Shown piece after piece: positions 2,688 to 52,541 of a stretch of 64,000 bases of DNA. The stretch is from Bacteroidota bacterium (GTDB taxonomy: Bacteria > Bacteroidota > Bacteroidia > AKYH767-A > OLB10). The translations under genes were made by a program, and so were the position numbers. The notes under the pieces are model-generated. The model saw only the letters and a program-made list of their open reading frames with translations. It was not told the DNA's origin and did not search any database. Every line of letters begins with the position of its first letter. The first letter of the stretch is position 1. The stretch is from contig JANNXV010000011.1 in the NCBI GenBank assembly GCA_031409815.1, forward strand, positions 7,148 through 71,147. The letters are read 5' to 3'.

Positions 2688-3455
2688 CTTTGGAGAAACA
2701 AATTCCAAAACTGCCTTCAACAATTCATTTGGATTATCGGCATGTACCCAATGCCCTGCATTTTTAATTACAACTAATTCGGCTCTTGGAAAAGTTTTTT
2801 TAATAGATTCAAATTTTGTTTCATCAATATAATCGGACTGCTCTCCTTTAACAAACATTGTTGCTACCTCAATAGGTGTTTCGCTTTCAGTAGCGGCTCC
2901 GACTTCAGCGATATCTTTTTCAATCACCGATAAATTAAATCGCCATGCCAATTGATTATCTGCTTTCCAGAATAAATTTTTTAACAAAAATTGTCGCGTT
3001 CCGTTATCGGCTATTTGCTCCCCCAGTTTTTTTTCTGCTTCTCCTCGAGTGGGTATCAATTGCACATCAACAGCATTTAATGCATCAATAATTTTTTGAT
3101 GATGCAGAGGATAGGCATATGGAGCAATATCAACCACAATTATTTTTGATAGTAAATCGGGATGATCGATGGCTAATTGCATGGCCACTTTACCACCCAT
3201 GCTATGCCCCAAAATAATGGGTTGTTCGAGATGTTGCTGTTCAATCAAGGCCACCACATCTTCACTCATTGTTATATAATTATGTGCATCAGCGTGAGGA
3301 GAATGACCATGATTACGCAAATCAACAAGGTAAACGGAAAAATTATTTGCGGATAGATTTCGTGCAAATGATTGCCAGTTATCGCCAGAGCCGAATAATC
3401 CATGTAAAATGATAAATGGAGCGCCCTCGCCAATTTTTTTATAATGTAGTTGCAT
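2682..3455 (-). CDS. alpha/beta-fold hydrolase (esterase YbfF-like)
   Basis: 257 aa with an HGLFGSGDNW oxyanion-hole region, a GHSMGG nucleophile elbow, and a C-terminal His (GHWVHAD). Confidence 0.8.
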   Translation of the reverse strand: MQLHYKKIGEGAPFIILHGLFGSGDNWQSFARNLSANNFSVYLVDLRNHGHSPHADAHNYITMSEDVVALIEQQHLEQPIILGHSMGGKVAMQLAIDHPDLLSKIIVVDIAPYAYPLHHQKIIDALNAVDVQLIPTRGEAEKKLGEQIADNGTRQFLLKNLFWKADNQLAWRFNLSVIEKDIAEVGAATESETPIEVATMFVKGEQSDYIDETKFESIKKTFPRAELVVIKNAGHWVHADNPNELLKAVLEFVSPKT

Positions 3456-3462
3456 AATTTGT

Positions 3463-3600
3463 AGGGAGTTAGGGGTGGGGAGTAGGGTTTGTTACGATTG
3501 GCTTTGAGACCCAATATTGAGCATGGAGTGATACTAAGAAGAAGTTTAGGATTTGAGATAGTCCAAATATATCCTGTCTATCCCTACTCCTAACTCCCTA
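3463..3600. repeat. short inverted-repeat (MITE-like) element in divergent promoter region
   Basis: GTAGGGAGTTAGGGGTGGGGAGTAGGG at 3463-3489 faces CCCTACTCCTAACTCCCTAC at 3579-3598, with an imperfect ~20-bp inverted pair spaced ~90 bp apart. A related AGTAGGAAGTAGGG motif occurs at 29538-29556. Confidence 0.3.
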
Positions 3601-3619
3601 CTTACTAAATAAATTATTT

Positions 3620-4099
3620 TTGTTGCCAATGAAAATTAATATTCGCAAAAGTAGGAAAGAAGATATGCCGCAGGTGTTAGAATTAATCCGCGAGCTGGCA
3701 TTGTTTGAAAAAGCACCCCATGAAGTAACCAATACGGTGGAGGATATGATTGCAGACGGATTTGGTGCGCAACCGGTTTTTAAATGCTTAGTAGCAGAAA
3801 CAGAAAATAAACTTGTGGGCATAGCAATCTATTATACAAAGTATTCAACTTGGAAGGGGAAAGGCACCTATCTCGATGACATTATTGTTACACAGTCGAT
3901 GCGCAGCAAAGGAATAGGAAGATTATTGTTTGACGAAGTGCTAAAAGAAAGCCGTGAAGCGGGAATGAATCAGTTGCACTGGCAAGTGTTGGACTGGAAT
4001 GAACCGGCAATTAACTTTTACAAAAAACACAATCCGAGTTTTGATGATGAATGGATTAATTGTAAGCTTACAAAAGAACAGTTGAATGAAAGTATTTAA
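3620..4099 (+). CDS. GNAT family N-acetyltransferase
   Basis: 159 aa with an acetyl-CoA-binding motif (GKGIGRLLFDEVLKESREAG) and a C-terminal NFYKK. It overlaps the downstream aspartokinase by 14 nt, which suggests an operon. Confidence 0.8.
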   Translation: MLPMKINIRKSRKEDMPQVLELIRELALFEKAPHEVTNTVEDMIADGFGAQPVFKCLVAETENKLVGIAIYYTKYSTWKGKGTYLDDIIVTQSMRSKGIGRLLFDEVLKESREAGMNQLHWQVLDWNEPAINFYKKHNPSFDDEWINCKLTKEQLNESI

Positions 4100-5360
4100 G
4101 TTTGGTGGAGCATCGGTGAAAGATGCAGCGGGAGTAAAAAATGTTGCAACTGTTTTGCAATTGTTTCCTAACCAGGATTTAGTGGTGGTGATTTCTGCGA
4201 TGGGAAAAACAACCAACGCCTTGGAAAAAGTGGTGCATGCATATTTTCACGAGAAAGAAATGGCGCATCTGATGTTGGAAGAAGTAAGAAGCTATCATCG
4301 CAGCATTATGGACGATTTATTTGCTGATTCAACACACCCGATATTTGAAAAAGTAAATAATTTTTTGGTGGAGATTGACTGGGTGCTGGAAGAAGAACCA
4401 CGCAGCTATGGATTTGTATATGATCAGATTGTTTCCATCGGAGAATTGATTTCAACAACTATTGTAAGTGCGTACTTAAATTCAGTTGCCATAAAAAATG
4501 CCTGGCAGGATGTACGTGATGTTTTGCAAACCGACAATACGTATCGCGAAGCAAAAGTGAATTGGGAAATGAGCGGTGATTTAATCGGAAAAATAATTCC
4601 TCCGTTATTCAATAAAGAAAATCACATTGTTATCACTCAAGGTTTCATCGGCAGCACTTCTGAAAACTATACTTCTACCTTAGGAAGAGAAGGTTCGGAT
4701 TATACAGCATCCATATTTGCCTACCTTTTAAATGCAGAATCGGTAAGCATCTGGAAAGATGTGCCGGGTGTATTGAATGCTGATCCGAAATTTTTTAAGG
4801 ACGCACAAAAATTAGAACAGATTAGTTATCTCGATGCAATTGAGCTGGCATATTATGGTGCATCGGTCATTCATCCGAAAACAATTAAGCCGTTAGAAAA
4901 TAAAAATATTCCGTTGCATGTAAAATCATTTGTTAACCCATCTTCAAAAGGAACTTTGATTGCACGCGACCTTGAAACAAAACCTTTGGTGCCTTCTTTT
5001 ATTTTTAAAACAAACCAGGTGCTGATCAGTATCTCAGCAAAAGATTTTTCATTTATTGCAGAAGAAAACCTGAGTACTATTTTTTCCTGCTTTGCGGAGT
5101 GTGGTGTAAAGTTAAACCTGATGCAAAATTCTGCTATCAGCTTTTCTGTTTGTGTGGATGATGACGAAGAAAAATTACCCAAGCTTATCGAGTTATTAAA
5201 GAAAGACTACAAAGTGCTTTACAACAAAAATTTACAGTTATACACCATACGTCATTATTTTCCTTCAACAGTAGAAACACTTACTCACAACCGCGAAATA
5301 CTTTTGGAACAACGCAGCAGAAACACTGCGCAAATTGTGATGAAGGAAGAAGAGAAATAA
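4086..5360 (+). CDS. lysC: monofunctional aspartate kinase
   Basis: 424 aa. The N-terminus has the amino-acid kinase signature MKVFKFGGASV. The GSDYTA and DVPGVLNADP motifs are present, and the C-terminus has ACT-like regulatory domains. Confidence 0.85.
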   Translation: MKVFKFGGASVKDAAGVKNVATVLQLFPNQDLVVVISAMGKTTNALEKVVHAYFHEKEMAHLMLEEVRSYHRSIMDDLFADSTHPIFEKVNNFLVEIDWVLEEEPRSYGFVYDQIVSIGELISTTIVSAYLNSVAIKNAWQDVRDVLQTDNTYREAKVNWEMSGDLIGKIIPPLFNKENHIVITQGFIGSTSENYTSTLGREGSDYTASIFAYLLNAESVSIWKDVPGVLNADPKFFKDAQKLEQISYLDAIELAYYGASVIHPKTIKPLENKNIPLHVKSFVNPSSKGTLIARDLETKPLVPSFIFKTNQVLISISAKDFSFIAEENLSTIFSCFAECGVKLNLMQNSAISFSVCVDDDEEKLPKLIELLKKDYKVLYNKNLQLYTIRHYFPSTVETLTHNREILLEQRSRNTAQIVMKEEEK

Positions 5361-5366
5361 ATACTG

Positions 5367-7058
5367 TTATTCAGATTCTGATTTTGACCGCGGCTTACGT
5401 TTCGGTTTGTCAGATTCGGATTTAGGACTTTTACTCTTCCCTGATCCTGTCATCACTTTTAGCATATTAATTTCATCTTCTGATAAAAATCTCCATCTGC
5501 CGCGAGCTAAATCTTTTTTGGTGAGTCCTGCAAAAATCACACGGTCTAATTTTTTCACTTCGTAATCAAAGTGTTCAAATATTCTTCGAACAATGCGGTT
5601 TTTTCCGCTGTGTATTTCCACACCCACCATTGTTTTGTCGCCAGCACCTTCATCATCGTAAGCAATCTCATCCACTTTAATAAAACCATCTTCCAGTTCC
5701 ACACCTTCTGCAATAGCATTCATGTGTTCCTTTTTTAATGGCTTGTCTAATTCAACATGATACACTTTAAAAATATTGGAACTCGGATGCGTGAGTTTTT
5801 TGGTCATCTCACCATCGTTAGTAAGCATTAGCAAACCGGTAGTGTTTCTATCTAATCGACCTACCGGATAGAAGCGTTCTTTTCCGGCACTTTTTACCAA
5901 CTCCATCACAGTTTTCCTTTCCTGCGGATCATCGGTTGTTGTGATGTAATCTTTCGGCTTGTTCAAAATCAGGTAAACAAGCTTCTCGCTTTTCATACGC
6001 TCTCCGTTGTAGCGGATATCGTCATCAGCATATACTCTTGTTCCAAGCTCAATCACTGTTTCTCCATTCACACTAATCACTCCTGCTTCAATTAATTCAT
6101 CCGCTTCTCTTCGCGAACAAATGCCGGAGTTGGCAATAAAACGATTTAACCGAATGCCTTCTGTTTGTGTGGTGGTTGATTCAGTAGTCTTGCTTCTTTC
6201 GTTTTTACCGGGACGTTTAAATTCTTTCTTTTCATACGAACGGCTTTCTGTAGAACCAAAACGGGATGGTTTCCGGTCAGAAAATTTATTGTCTGTAAAA
6301 CGGGAACTACCTTCTGCTCGGCCACTTTTATTTTTTGAAAAACTCTTTTCCTCTTTATAAAACTTTCCGAAAGGCTTGCCCTCATTATTTTTTTTCTCTG
6401 CACGATAATTTCGCTCACCAGATTTTTTGCGGTCTTCTTTATTACTTCCTCTTCTGTCTTCACTAAAATTTCGGTCTCTGGGTGTTCTGCGTTCGTCACT
6501 ACTTCGCTCATTTCTGTCGCCACCAAAACTATTTTCTCTTGCCGGTCTGCGATCATCATTGCTGCGTTCACTTCGTTCTCCACCAAAACTTTTATCTCTA
6601 AATGGCTTACGTTCTCCTCCTTCTCTTTTATCCCCAAAACTTTTTTCTCTGAAAGGTTTGCGATCGCCACTTTCTCTTTTGTCGCCATAACTTATTTCTC
6701 TAACCGGCTTGCGATCATCGTTACGGCCTTCTCTTCTGTCGCTATCAAATTTTTTTTCTCTGAAAGGTTTGCGATCATCACCGGCTCTTCTGTTCTCCGT
6801 GTATCCGCCTTCGCGTCTGGGTGGTTTAGCATTTGAAAAACTTTTCCCATCTTTTTTATCTACACGCTTACGCATTGGCTTGCCATCCGATTTAGTCCAG
6901 CCCGCTTCCGATTTATCTGCATCGCGATATTTTTTAAACCCAGTGGCCGGTTTAACTTCTCTACTGCTATTAGGTCTCTTTTTATCGCGGCCCGAATCTT
7001 CGCGACCACCGCTGCGACCTTCTGAATTAGTTCTTCTCATTTGTTGTAAGTATTTCAA
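5367..7058 (-). CDS. rluB: RluB-type 23S rRNA pseudouridine synthase with long N-terminal Arg/Asp/Glu/Lys-rich tandem-repeat extension
   Basis: The C-terminal half carries an S4 domain (IRLNRFIANSGICSRREADELI) and the RsuA/RluB catalytic core (FYPVGRLDRNTTGLLMLTNDG). The N-terminal ~320 aa are low-complexity (RKPFREKSFGDKREGGE-like repeats), encoded by ~54-nt tandem repeats at ~6430-6800. Confidence 0.85.
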   Translation of the reverse strand: MKYLQQMRRTNSEGRSGGREDSGRDKKRPNSSREVKPATGFKKYRDADKSEAGWTKSDGKPMRKRVDKKDGKSFSNAKPPRREGGYTENRRAGDDRKPFREKKFDSDRREGRNDDRKPVREISYGDKRESGDRKPFREKSFGDKREGGERKPFRDKSFGGERSERSNDDRRPARENSFGGDRNERSSDERRTPRDRNFSEDRRGSNKEDRKKSGERNYRAEKKNNEGKPFGKFYKEEKSFSKNKSGRAEGSSRFTDNKFSDRKPSRFGSTESRSYEKKEFKRPGKNERSKTTESTTTQTEGIRLNRFIANSGICSRREADELIEAGVISVNGETVIELGTRVYADDDIRYNGERMKSEKLVYLILNKPKDYITTTDDPQERKTVMELVKSAGKERFYPVGRLDRNTTGLLMLTNDGEMTKKLTHPSSNIFKVYHVELDKPLKKEHMNAIAEGVELEDGFIKVDEIAYDDEGAGDKTMVGVEIHSGKNRIVRRIFEHFDYEVKKLDRVIFAGLTKKDLARGRWRFLSEDEINMLKVMTGSGKSKSPKSESDKPKRKPRSKSESE

Positions 7059-45236: not shown

Positions 45237-47102
45237 ATGAAAAAATATTTAGCACTCTTGCTTGTGATGGTTGTTGGTTGCAACCAATCTGCAAAAAAAA
45301 ATTCTGAAAACACAGAAAACATAACCGTTAATGATGAGCACTCGTTTGCGAAACCGAATGAGGCTGTTGTCAAACATCTTGATCTCAATTTAAAAGTTGA
45401 TTTTGAAAAAAAGCAGCTCGCAGGTAAAGCCACACTCACTATTGAAAATATTGCAAAAGGAAACAACTTACATCTGGATACACGTGACCTGAATATTATT
45501 GCGATCACTTTGGATGAGAATAGTATTACCACCTTTGAGATGAAACCTGCTGTTGCTATTCTTGGTCAGGAATTAATTGTGGCCATTAAACCGGAAACCC
45601 AAAAAGTAAATATTGAATACACTACATCTGCCGAAGGTGGTGCAGTGCAGTGGTTGAGTCCTGCACAAACTGCCGGAGGCAAGCAACCTTTTTTATTTAC
45701 ACATAGCGAAGCCATACTGGCACGTACTTGGATTCCTTTACAGGACAGTCCGGGAATAAGATTTACCTACGATGCAACCATCCAATGCCCACCCAATTTA
45801 ATGGCAGTGATGAGCGCTGAAAACGATACGCTACTGCATTCAGATGGTGTCTATCATTTTCATATGCCACAGCCTATCCCATCTTACCTGATGGCATTGG
45901 CAGTAGGCGATTTAAAATTTCACTCGTATGATAATCGCAGTGGTGTTTTTGCCGAACCGGTAACATTGCCAAAAGCTGCCAACGAATTAGTTGATATACC
46001 GCGCATGATTGCAGCAGCCGAAGAATTGTATGGCCCTTATGCCTGGGGCCGTTATGATGTGTTGATATTGCCTCCAAGTTTTCCTTTTGGGGGAATGGAA
46101 AACCCACGGCTCACTTTTGCAACTCCTACTATTCTGGCTGGCGATCGTTCATTAGTTGCATTGATAGCGCATGAATTAGCACATAGCTGGAGCGGCAACT
46201 TAGTTACCAATGCAACCTGGAACGATTTCTGGCTCAATGAAGGCTTTACCGTGTATTTTGAAACACGCATTATGGAAAAATTATTTGGTAAAGACTATGC
46301 AGATATGTTAACCGTTCTGGGGAAAGGCGATCTTGATGGTACCATCGCGGATTTAGGAGATAAAAATCCTGACACACATCTTTATCTCAACCTTAAAGGA
46401 CGTGATCCGGATGAGGGCGTGAGTGATATTGCGTATGAGAAAGGAAGATTCTTTCTAACCAGTATAGAACAAACGGTGGGTCGTGATAAATGGGATTTGT
46501 TCTTAAAAAAATATTTTACCGAAAATGCTTTTCACAGCATGACCACTGAAATGTTTCTGGCATATCTTGATAAAGAACTTATCAAAAGTGACACCGCACT
46601 CAAAAACAATTTGCACATACAAGAATGGGTGTATAGTCCTGGATTGCCTGCTAATTTTCCAATTGTAACTTCTGCTGAATTAGATAAGGCAAAAGCAGCT
46701 GCTAATGATTTTATGAAAGGAACATCGCCAGCAAAAATCAATACTCAAGGTTGGACCACACACCACTGGTTGCAGTTTTTACGTGCCATGCCCAACGAAC
46801 TTACAACTGAGCAAATGAAATCTTTGGATGCACAATTTCAATTTACCGAAAGTGGTAATTCAGAAATTCTTTGCGACTGGTTGCGGCATTGTATCAGCAG
46901 CAATTATTCAGCAGCGGATTTAACCCTCGATCAATTTTTGATGAATGTAGGAAGACGCAAATTTTTACGACCGCTCTATGGCGATCTAATAAAAACTCCA
47001 TCTGGCAAAGAAAAGGCAAAAGCAATTTATGCCAGGGCAAGGCCGGGCTATCATTCAATTGCTACCACAACTTTGGATGAGATGCTGGGGGTGCCACAGT
47101 AA
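45237..47102 (+). CDS. M1 family zinc aminopeptidase (LTA4 hydrolase-like) lipoprotein
   Basis: 621 aa with a lipoprotein signal (LLVMVVGCNQS), GGMEN, HELAHSWSGN (HExxH) and a downstream WLNEGFTVY Glu ligand. Confidence 0.85.
   Translation: MKKYLALLLVMVVGCNQSAKKNSENTENITVNDEHSFAKPNEAVVKHLDLNLKVDFEKKQLAGKATLTIENIAKGNNLHLDTRDLNIIAITLDENSITTFEMKPAVAILGQELIVAIKPETQKVNIEYTTSAEGGAVQWLSPAQTAGGKQPFLFTHSEAILARTWIPLQDSPGIRFTYDATIQCPPNLMAVMSAENDTLLHSDGVYHFHMPQPIPSYLMALAVGDLKFHSYDNRSGVFAEPVTLPKAANELVDIPRMIAAAEELYGPYAWGRYDVLILPPSFPFGGMENPRLTFATPTILAGDRSLVALIAHELAHSWSGNLVTNATWNDFWLNEGFTVYFETRIMEKLFGKDYADMLTVLGKGDLDGTIADLGDKNPDTHLYLNLKGRDPDEGVSDIAYEKGRFFLTSIEQTVGRDKWDLFLKKYFTENAFHSMTTEMFLAYLDKELIKSDTALKNNLHIQEWVYSPGLPANFPIVTSAELDKAKAAANDFMKGTSPAKINTQGWTTHHWLQFLRAMPNELTTEQMKSLDAQFQFTESGNSEILCDWLRHCISSNYSAADLTLDQFLMNVGRRKFLRPLYGDLIKTPSGKEKAKAIYARARPGYHSIATTTLDEMLGVPQ
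47076..47102 (+). repeat. left copy of 27-bp direct repeat GATGAGATGCTGGGGGTGCCACAGTAA (3' end of aminopeptidase gene)
   Basis: Identical to 47863-47889. Together the two copies flank the REP-RAYT insertion. Confidence 0.9.
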
Positions 47103-47862
47103 GTTAATCACACAAACCTCCGAGGTTTAATTAGCGAATTAACAAGTGAAAAATAAAACAAACTTCAACCAATGTCTCAGGCATTACCTCCTTTAGAACC
47201 CGATTGTTATTATCACATTTATAATCATGCAAACGGCAGCGATGCATTGTTTAGAAGCGATGAAAATTATTATTACTTCCTTGAGAAATATATTCAGCAT
47301 ATTGATCCTTTTGTAAACACTTTTGCTTATTGCATGATGCCAAATCATTTTCATTTCTTTATTCAGGTTAAGGAAGATCAGTCGCAGCAAACCTCCGAGG
47401 TTTCTAAAAACCTCGGAGGTTTAAACAATGAAGAAGCATCCAAAGAAATAGATTTATCGAAACGTTTATCAAATTTATTTAATGCTTATACAAAGGCATA
47501 AAACAAAAAATTTGATCGAAGGGGAAGTTTATTTAATCATCGTTTCAAAAGAAAAAGAGTTGAAACAAACGACTACTTCATTCAACTTATTAAGTACATT
47601 CATTTAAACCCAGTGCATCATGGTTTTGTAAAACATCCAGCGGATTGGAAATTCTCTTCCTATCATTCGTTTTTAGACAAGAGAAAAACAAAGATTAATC
47701 GAAGTGAGGTTTTAATGTGGTTTGATGGAGCAGACAATTTCAGGTATGCGCATCAGTTACCTCTGAGTGATAAGTTTATTTTAGAGATGGATATTTAACC
47801 GAAAATAAACCTCCTAGGTTTTTAAAACCTAGGAGGTTTATACTGTAGCAACAGAAACGTTT
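47103..47862 (+). mobile_element. REP-RAYT (IS200-like, REP-associated tyrosine transposase) insertion flanked by 27-bp direct duplication; transposase inactivated
   Basis: REP-like palindromes AAACCTCCGAGGTTT lie at 47114-47128, 47390-47404 and 47406-47421. Variants AAACCTCCTAGGTTT / AAACCTAGGAGGTTT lie at 47808-47822 and 47825-47839. The element contains the interrupted HuH transposase ORF and is bounded by perfect 27-bp direct repeats. Confidence 0.75.
47172..47798 (+). pseudogene. IS200/IS605-like Y1 (RAYT) transposase interrupted by in-frame TAA at 47499-47501
   Basis: The HuH motif is PNHFHFF. After a single in-frame TAA the same frame continues NKKFDRRGSLFNHRFKRKRVE...YIHLNPVHHGFV...WKFSSYHSF, which includes the catalytic Tyr. 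The ORF track splits this into 47172..47501 and 47613..47798, both in frame 0. Two REP palindromes lie inside the ORF at 47390-47421. Confidence 0.75.
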
Positions 47863-47889
47863 GATGAGATGCTGGGGGTGCCACAGTAA
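47863..47889 (+). repeat. right copy of 27-bp direct repeat GATGAGATGCTGGGGGTGCCACAGTAA
   Basis: A perfect copy of 47076-47102, including the TAA stop of the aminopeptidase gene. Confidence 0.9.
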
Positions 47890-52468: not shown

Positions 52469-52539
52469 GGTCGTGTGGCCGAGCGGTTAGGCAGAGGTCT
52501 GCAAAACCTCCTACAGCGGTTCAAATCCGCTCGCGACCT
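52469..52539 (+). tRNA. tRNA-Cys (anticodon GCA)
   Basis: Manual fold. The acceptor is GGTCGTG/CGCGACC. The 3-bp D-stem is GCC/GGC. The anticodon stem is GAGGT/ACCTC with loop CTGCAAA. The T-arm is AGCGG-TTCAAAT-CCGCT, and the discriminator is T. Confidence 0.75.
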
Positions 52540-52541
52540 CA

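Follow-up and report, generated by a model that had tools for sequence, protein, structure and literature searches.

The transposases associated with repetitive extragenic palindromes (REPs), termed RAYTs (for REP-associated tyrosine transposase), are regarded as vertically inherited, domesticated enzymes, and the route by which they enter new genomes is unclear. Here, we analyzed a stretch of 64,000 nucleotides (nt) from a Bacteroidota bacterium (assembly GCA_031409815.1, contig JANNXV010000011.1, positions 7,148 to 71,147; hereafter, the window), in which a relic REP-RAYT cassette lies between an intact M1-family aminopeptidase gene and a 50-nt vestige of the 3' end of that gene. The closest described elements are those of TnpA_REP subclass 2.4 (Quentin et al. 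2018, BMC Genomics 19:475, PMC6006769), also classified as RAYT group 4 (Bertels et al. 2017, GBE 9:2110). They encode HuH-Y1 proteins of ~200 amino acids with an NH[IFV]H motif, occur in Bacteroidetes and Cyanobacteria at low copy number, and are flanked by long REP palindromes, while the hallmark of the subclass is the presence of in-frame REP copies within the transposase gene itself. The window shares the size and HuH motif of the protein, the flanking palindromes, and an in-frame REP copy in the segment that separates the HuH motif from the Tyr motif. It differs in its Tyr motif (YIHLNP, as opposed to the listed YIxNNP), in its REPs, which are near-perfect 33-nt double palindromes with no obvious GT[AG]G foot, in the state of its gene, which is a pseudogene, and in the duplicated host gene end that brackets the cassette, a feature for which term searches of the published descriptions returned no mention.

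Two further systems provide a useful comparison. The gene of Escherichia coli TnpA_REP (YafM, PDB 4ER8) is likewise flanked by inverted REPs, and its product matches the window protein over the catalytic Tyr region. However, in this system of REPs and bacterial interspersed mosaic elements (BIMEs), the REPs are imperfect hairpins with a GTAG foot that are present in hundreds of copies, none of them within the gene, whereas the window holds no REP copy beyond the locus in its 64 kb. Elements of the IS200/IS605 insertion sequence family (e.g. IS608) share the HuH-Y1 catalytic chemistry, the hairpins near the ends, and the expectation that no target duplication is made. In contrast to their TnpA of ~130–150 amino acids and their multiple identical copies, the window protein is longer (208 codons), of the RAYT type, and present in one copy in the window; its flanking structures are long near-perfect double palindromes and not subterminal imperfect hairpins, and the repeat on its flanks consists of a mosaic gene end instead of a product of transposition.

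The cassette comprises one HuH-Y1 gene, whose cognate 33-nt REP doublets lie on either side of it and also, in frame, within it (Table 1), and the GC content of the cassette is 0.33 as compared with 0.41 in the aminopeptidase gene. Within the window, the 27-mer GATGAGATGCTGGGGGTGCCACAGTAA has exactly two occurrences (47076–47102 and 47863–47889), and shuffled sequence gave no match to it even when 3 mismatches were allowed; likewise, the longest substring common to both flanks is 27 nt, compared with a null maximum of 10. The two copies, which lie 787 bp apart with 760 bp between them, enclose the REP-RAYT unit, and the first of them constitutes the final 8 codons and the stop codon of the aminopeptidase gene. 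The aminopeptidase itself matches Pfam Peptidase_M1, Leuk-A4-hydro_C and Peptidase_M1_N as well as NCBIfam TIGR02411 (E 1e-149). On several points these results bear out the initial annotation, which had described a perfect 27-nt direct repeat (found here to be real and non-random), a RAYT-like HuH/Y1 open reading frame (ORF) between its copies (confirmed by translation, by profiles, and by the 4ER8 match), a REP-flanked RAYT unit at the aminopeptidase 3' end (it lies directly 3' of the stop codon), and a host protein left unaffected (the ORF is whole, at 621 amino acids). Its remark that a transposase-made duplication would be unexpected for the RAYT family is also supported. What does not hold is the picture of a clean insertion with a 27-bp target-site duplication, as the second copy proved to be part of a 50-nt, in-register, mosaic vestige of the gene end.

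Table 1. Coordinates of the features at the REP-RAYT locus, numbered from the first letter of the window.
Feature	Position	Strand	Description
M1-family (leukotriene-A4-hydrolase-like) aminopeptidase gene	45237..47102	+	From the ORF list; intact, 621 aa, ending ...GYHSIATTTLDEMLGVPQ*
Resident gene end (end1)	47053..47102	+	50 nt homologous to the vestige; 47076–47102 is repeat copy 1
Single REP palindrome AAACCTCCGAGGTTT	47114..47128	.	15 nt; upstream of the RAYT gene; weak hairpin, -3.8 kcal/mol
RAYT / TnpA_REP gene, subclass 2.4-like	47172..47798	+	208 codons; HuH motif NHFH, Tyr motif YIHLNP
Intragenic REP doublet	47389..47422	.	Palindromes 47389–47403 and 47408–47422; 15-bp stem, 4-nt loop; -17.1 kcal/mol, z -8.6
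Downstream REP doublet	47805..47841	.	Palindromes 47807–47821 and 47825–47839; 18-bp stem; -16.7 kcal/mol, z -8.1
Vestigial non-coding second gene end (end2)	47840..47889	+	Reads (Y)TVATETFDEMLGVPQ*; 47863–47889 is repeat copy 2

The vestige was dissected by a three-way alignment of the resident gene end (end1), the vestige (end2), and the corresponding gene end of L001. This metagenome contig of 917 bp carries a RAYT with 78% amino acid identity to that of the window. Homology of the second copy begins with position 47840, where the downstream hairpin has its 3' foot (…GGAGGTTTAT, followed by ACT…), and runs in register to 47889. The initial annotation had considered that the 27-bp repeat might belong to a longer duplication unrelated to the boundaries of the element; the homology does extend to 50 nt, but it ends directly at the REP hairpin foot. 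The vestige, which contains …ACTGTAGCAACAGAAACGTTTGATGAG…, reads YTVATETFDEMLGVPQ*, as compared with HSIATTTLDEMLGVPQ* in the resident gene and HTVATATFDEMLGVTN* in L001, and it is non-coding because a TAG at 47830–47832 closes its frame. In its first part (47840–47862), 13 of the 23 bases are identical to end1 and 19 of the 23 to the L001 allele, the next 14 nt are the same in all three sequences, and the final 13 nt agree with the resident gene at 13 of 13 positions and with L001 at 7 of 13.

From 47863 to 47889, the vestige is therefore identical to end1 at 27 of 27 positions, and all 10 differences between them fall within the first 23 of the 50 nt (hypergeometric P about 1e-4, our own calculation). 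Copies generated as a target-site duplication are identical at birth and decay evenly, which is contradicted by this distribution, and a uniform duplication followed by decay would be unable to yield such clustered mismatches. Because both parts of the vestige join in register, the position 47862/47863 would have to mark the edge of a homologous exchange in which two diverged gene-end alleles took part (by crossover or conversion) and not an illegitimate junction; the mosaic would thus require an exchange boundary, as opposed to a staggered cut. The 27-nt repeat represents the stretch over which the vestige matches the resident gene base for base, and not a target-site duplication made by a transposase. 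The remaining 23 nt appear to have come from another, diverged allele of this gene, which is most similar to the allele of L001, where the cassette occupies the same place: over this segment, the vestige and L001 differ by 4 mismatches, compared with 9 between end1 and L001.

The RAYT gene contains an in-frame TAA at 47499–47501 (codon 110), where every homologue has a Tyr (AYTKA-Y-NKK). Since the TAA takes the place of an invariant Tyr codon, the gene is a pseudogene, unless the TAA is a sequencing error; this state was absent from the initial annotation. The HuH motif lies in MPNHFHFF (residues 56–63), of which P57, N58, H59 and H61 are invariant among 17 aligned sequences. The Tyr motif and a conserved W, YIHLNPVHHGFVKHPADW, align to YIYINPVKHGWVKQVSDW of 4ER8, and as the motif lies 3' of the in-frame TAA, it is outside any intact product. 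E. coli TnpA_REP was the only PDB match (E 1.5e-5, over the catalytic Tyr region). Among the profiles, NCBIfam REP_Tyr_transpos (NF047646) scored 61.4 bits (E 8e-17), below its curated cut-off of 80, and Pfam Y1_Tnp scored 22.1 bits, below the threshold of 23; both scores fall just short of threshold although the E-values are significant, plausibly owing to the REP-encoded insert.

A total of 1579 homologues of ~200 amino acids were found, mostly from Bacteroidota, and several are named RayT by their sources. Their Tyr motifs read YIH(L/F/N/S/A/Y)NP, and the linker between their HuH and Tyr motifs is variable and resembles translated palindromes (TSEVLKTSEV, DLTGFENLSGL, NLQGFQNLGGL). Hairpin scans of L001, of the CRISPR-Cas-containing contig L002 (described below), and of RAYT-matching metagenome loci further revealed a ~33-nt palindrome before, after, and often within the RAYT gene, with a sequence that is constant per locus and varies across loci (e.g. 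L002, L083, L086, L090, L092, L101, L106, L141); the copies within the gene occupy the same linker position as in the window. By its motifs and architecture, as distinct from a phylogenetic placement against the published subclass sets, the window RAYT appears to be of the described TnpA_REP subclass 2.4/RAYT group 4 kind; its 208 codons fit the subclass mean of ~194 amino acids, and its YIHLNP has an L for the N of YIxNNP. The palindromes inside the ORF, striking at first look, are thus already published for this RAYT subclass.

Five 15-nt palindromes of the form AAACCTCC(G/T)AGGTTT are present at the locus, and a search allowing 1 mismatch returned 12 strand-hits, compared with 0.13 expected. 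The layout given in the initial annotation holds for their number, for the two within the ORF and for the two downstream, but only one palindrome, and not two, lies upstream. This single palindrome is the remaining half of a REP doublet: L001 keeps the full doublet at the same place, and the second half has been lost in the window (47102–47171 vs L001:161–233), which represents a second sign of decay of the cassette beside the in-frame stop. The paired palindromes fold as 33–37-nt hairpins of about -17 kcal/mol (z about -8). Of the two intact doublets, the intragenic one is in frame between the HuH and Tyr motifs and encodes ...TSEVSKNLGGL..., and the downstream one directly follows the RAYT stop codon, its 3' foot adjoining the vestigial gene end. 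The RAYT gene is thus flanked by inverted cognate REPs (the half REP at 47114–47128 and the doublet at 47805–47841), as it also is in L001, L002 and many metagenome loci.

Outside the locus, no copy of the palindrome was found within the 64-kb window. The initial annotation had proposed looking for palindromes elsewhere in the genome, and this could be followed within the window, whose 64 kb are too small to decide on dispersal: as the 16-mers flanking group 4 genes are of low abundance (~14 per replicon on average), the absence of further copies here is uninformative. Similarly, no REP was found elsewhere in the 7.5 kb of L002. The identical 15-mer AAACCTCCGAGGTTT also serves as the cognate REP in L001 (171–204 and 866–898) and in L002 (840–872 and 1178–1210), as it does at 47114–47839 of the window. 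The RAYTs that share it come from different assemblies and are only 58–78% identical in protein sequence, a divergence across which the conservation of the REP sequence is unusually strong. The repeat and cassette site yielded no Rfam family or tRNA and no sigma-70-type promoter, and its sole terminator-like match was the REP doublet itself, on the minus strand.

Comparison with other genomes places the locus in a wider context. In L001, the order is that of the window, namely, aminopeptidase gene end, REP doublet, RAYT, REP doublet, and since this order is shared at a RAYT identity of 78%, the association is old or recurrent and does not reflect a recent hop. The 19 nt that follow the last L001 doublet contain AACTAATTAAA, which corresponds to L001's own gene end including the stop codon; this match is the best in the contig (P about 0.001) and is suggestive only. 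An exact-protein look-up with the aminopeptidase returned no record, a protein search with its C-terminal 300 amino acids gave a best identity of 66%, and one with its last 63 amino acids gave two distant matches only. Scanning genome contigs with the aminopeptidase identified 80 orthologue loci, every one at ≤70% amino acid identity, with no RAYT within 4 kb and no conservation of downstream synteny. The nearest orthologues end in …DEML(R/H)*, followed by a terminator hairpin, with no RAYT nearby. At this distance, none of the 80 loci can stand in for an empty site. Scanning metagenomes with the RAYT retrieved only relatives that are ≤50% identical, and these are informative for the architecture of the family and not for this site. 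Separately, in Pontibacter qinzhouensis (L038:5894–5965), a long hairpin with the outer arms TTTAAACCTCC…GGAGGTTTAAA lies 3' of an aminopeptidase orthologue; its outer motif equals that of the window REP, no RAYT occurs within 4 kb, and the resemblance may be a coincidence.

RAYTs that are 58–60% identical to that of the window occupy other sites, at cas9/cas1 and at dapA. Three such homologues (L002:952–1557, L163:581–1210 and L164:213–818) lie directly upstream of cas1; in the type II CRISPR-Cas loci of L002 and L163, they are bordered by the cas9 3' end on one side and by cas1 on the other. In L164, whose RAYT is 60% identical to that of the window, a second copy of the initial 10 cas1 codons was detected upstream of the RAYT gene (L164:115–143 vs L164:875–904), with an alignment score of 33 as compared with a null of 16.8 +/- 2.6. 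This copy carries one frameshift and a Tyr-to-stop change, and the other four of its five substitutions are at third codon positions; it is slightly nearer to the cas1 start of L163 than to that of its own neighboring cas1. The geometry of L164 is that of the window: a whole gene, a cassette, and a leftover of the terminal segment of the gene. No significant vestigial copy of the cas1 5' end or the cas9 3' end was found in L002 and L163.

Whether other REP clusters carry flanking duplications of this kind, a question raised in the initial annotation, was addressed by comparing the flanks of ~60 RAYT loci through exact matching and Smith-Waterman alignment, with palindromes masked in the latter. 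None of these loci displayed a gene-end repeat, and the sequence shared by their flanks consisted of REP or BIME-like modules (e.g. L113, L118, L112). As REP modules alone are shared, the gene-end repeat is no regular footprint of the enzyme; the cas1 vestige of L164 is a parallel to it. One candidate, L139, first appeared to be a gene split by a RAYT with a duplicated coding stretch and was rejected, as the repeated piece corresponds to REP arms. In L125, a distant RAYT-like gene (32% identical, on a contig of 1.1 kb) is flanked by a non-palindromic direct repeat of ~60 nt that is ~93% identical between its copies (L125:153–212 vs L125:1017–1075).

Homology-facilitated illegitimate recombination, as it occurs in the uptake of foreign DNA, combines one homologous joint in a conserved gene with one joint that lacks homology. 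Both this process and the integrative islands that duplicate the 3' end of a gene keep the host gene whole and leave a partial second copy. Here, we propose, with a probability of about one half, that the locus is a recombination scar, in which a related genome supplied the cassette, by acquisition or exchange, along with part of the adjacent gene. According to this proposal, recombination with DNA that carried the cassette and the neighboring-gene piece would have proceeded through two joints. The first would be a homologous exchange in the conserved gene end, either a crossover or a conversion tract located in GATGAGATGCTGGG or adjacent to it, and the identity of the two copies extends up to the stop codon, where homology stops. 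The second joint would be illegitimate or HuH-catalyzed, at the foot of the REP hairpin. Only recombinants with a complete aminopeptidase ORF would have survived, leaving the full end on the gene side and the leftover on the far side. The lower GC content of the cassette and the closeness of the vestige to L001 would both fit such a scar, if weakly. The window differs from these two in that its unit lacks an integrase, that the event itself was not observed, and that its illegitimate joint coincides with the REP hairpin foot; because of this coincidence, the RAYT may have had a hand in that joint. The sequence itself establishes the anatomy of the locus, its mosaic vestige, the assignment to the RAYT family, the inactivation of the gene and the gene order shared with L001, whereas the direction and number of the recombination events are inferred.

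Several points weigh against a recombination scar. Its weak point is that a one-step crossover between diverged alleles would not by itself explain why the final 13 nt, which are not conserved, are identical in both copies; this identity would call for correction of a heteroduplex, for resident sequence to have been duplicated between the two joints, or for a conversion at a later time. Apart from L001, neither an empty site nor a relative closer than ~70% was present in the collections searched, and the order of events is therefore only inferred. The greater similarity of the vestige to L001 than that of end1 concerns 23 nt alone and is not significant by itself, the tail match in L001 is short and AT-rich, and the pattern in L164 also fits an old duplication followed by divergence.

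An alternative that we regard as rather unlikely, though tenable, is that the insertion itself generated a duplication of ~50 nt, for example by repair of widely staggered breaks or by replication restart at the REP hairpin, after which the proximal copy evolved under selection, the distal copy, 787 bp away, decayed, and a recent, short conversion or template switch between the copies homogenized the last 27 nt. Such a duplication would account for the order of gene, cassette and terminal-segment leftover both here and in L164, for the position of the vestige, whose left end falls on the foot of the REP hairpin, and for the apparent lineage-specific copy of its own stop region in L001, as expected under repeated homogenization; the third-position bias in L164 is also expected from synonymous drift of the functional copy. 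However, enzymes of the IS200/IS605 type and RAYTs are not known for sizeable target duplications (Nunvar 2010), and none was found at the ~60 other RAYT loci. Moreover, a neutral vestige as old as the split between the window and L001 should lie farther from L001 than the resident gene does, whereas it lies closer (4 mismatches in 23 nt, compared with 9), and it is mechanistically awkward for a conversion tract to extend all the way to the final homologous base.

We consider it improbable that the 787-bp unit is a site-specific or homology-targeted miniature integrative element that cycles between a circle and the chromosome, with the gene end as an att-like core and the 23 nt as an arm of the element, by analogy with islands that integrate into gene 3' ends and supply a replacement end. 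In such an element, direct repeats that equal the 3' end of a gene and finish at its stop codon, an element-side arm that resembles the allele of another host, and the occupation of the same target gene in two lineages would all be expected, and 27-nt direct repeats could support excision. Yet the 760-bp insert holds a RAYT pseudogene only and no integrase (tyrosine or serine recombinase), HuH-Y1 enzymes act at hairpin feet and not at 27-nt cores, and relatives of the RAYT reside at unrelated sites (cas9/cas1, dapA) without such repeats; furthermore, identity of the last 13 non-conserved nt would not be predicted unless donor and recipient were of one lineage. Least likely of all is a merger of two strain variants by a metagenome assembler through a shared k-mer, for although a perfect 27-nt repeat is near common k-mer sizes and the lineage is known from metagenomic relatives only, the hairpin-vestige junction (47839–47842) has no k-mer-length overlap with the gene, so that a chimeric path would need real reads, the independent assembly L001 displays the same gene order and a similar tail, and the vestige sequence, being distinct from that of the resident gene, has to be present in a genome somewhere.

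Returning to the recombination scar, the vestiges in the window and in L164 would be direct sequence traces of a route other than transposition, namely recombination, by which RAYT cassettes can enter a genome or be swapped along with host DNA from their flanks, a detail that is useful to REPIN-RAYT researchers and leaves the picture of the family unchanged. A broader generalization, which we hold to be quite doubtful, is that RAYT cassettes of this Bacteroidota clade spread between related genomes with a neighboring-gene terminus, integrating through its homology and regenerating the gene end, with the hairpin foot as the other joint and the repeats allowing precise excision; if true, this would constitute a gene-end-preserving, homology-targeted mode of insertion for a HuH element. 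On present evidence, the locus holds a decayed representative of an already described RAYT subclass and, as we read it, a modestly interesting recombination scar, and it reveals no new mechanism.

Further observations concern the surroundings of the locus and of its relatives. A tRNA-Cys gene lies at 52469–52540 of the window, 4.6 kb downstream, with no connection to the repeat or the cassette. L002 also encodes cas2 and an array of at least 33 repeats of 47 nt at about 3265–5750; these CRISPR repeats were considered as relatives of the REPs and rejected, as the sequences are unrelated. Finally, one RAYT follows dapA (L165/L166), where the upstream REP doublet (L165:2593–2628, L166:243–278) overlaps the final codons of the dapA (DHDPS) ORF and, in L165, supplies its TGA stop codon (2617–2619), such that the C-terminus of a housekeeping protein is REP-encoded.

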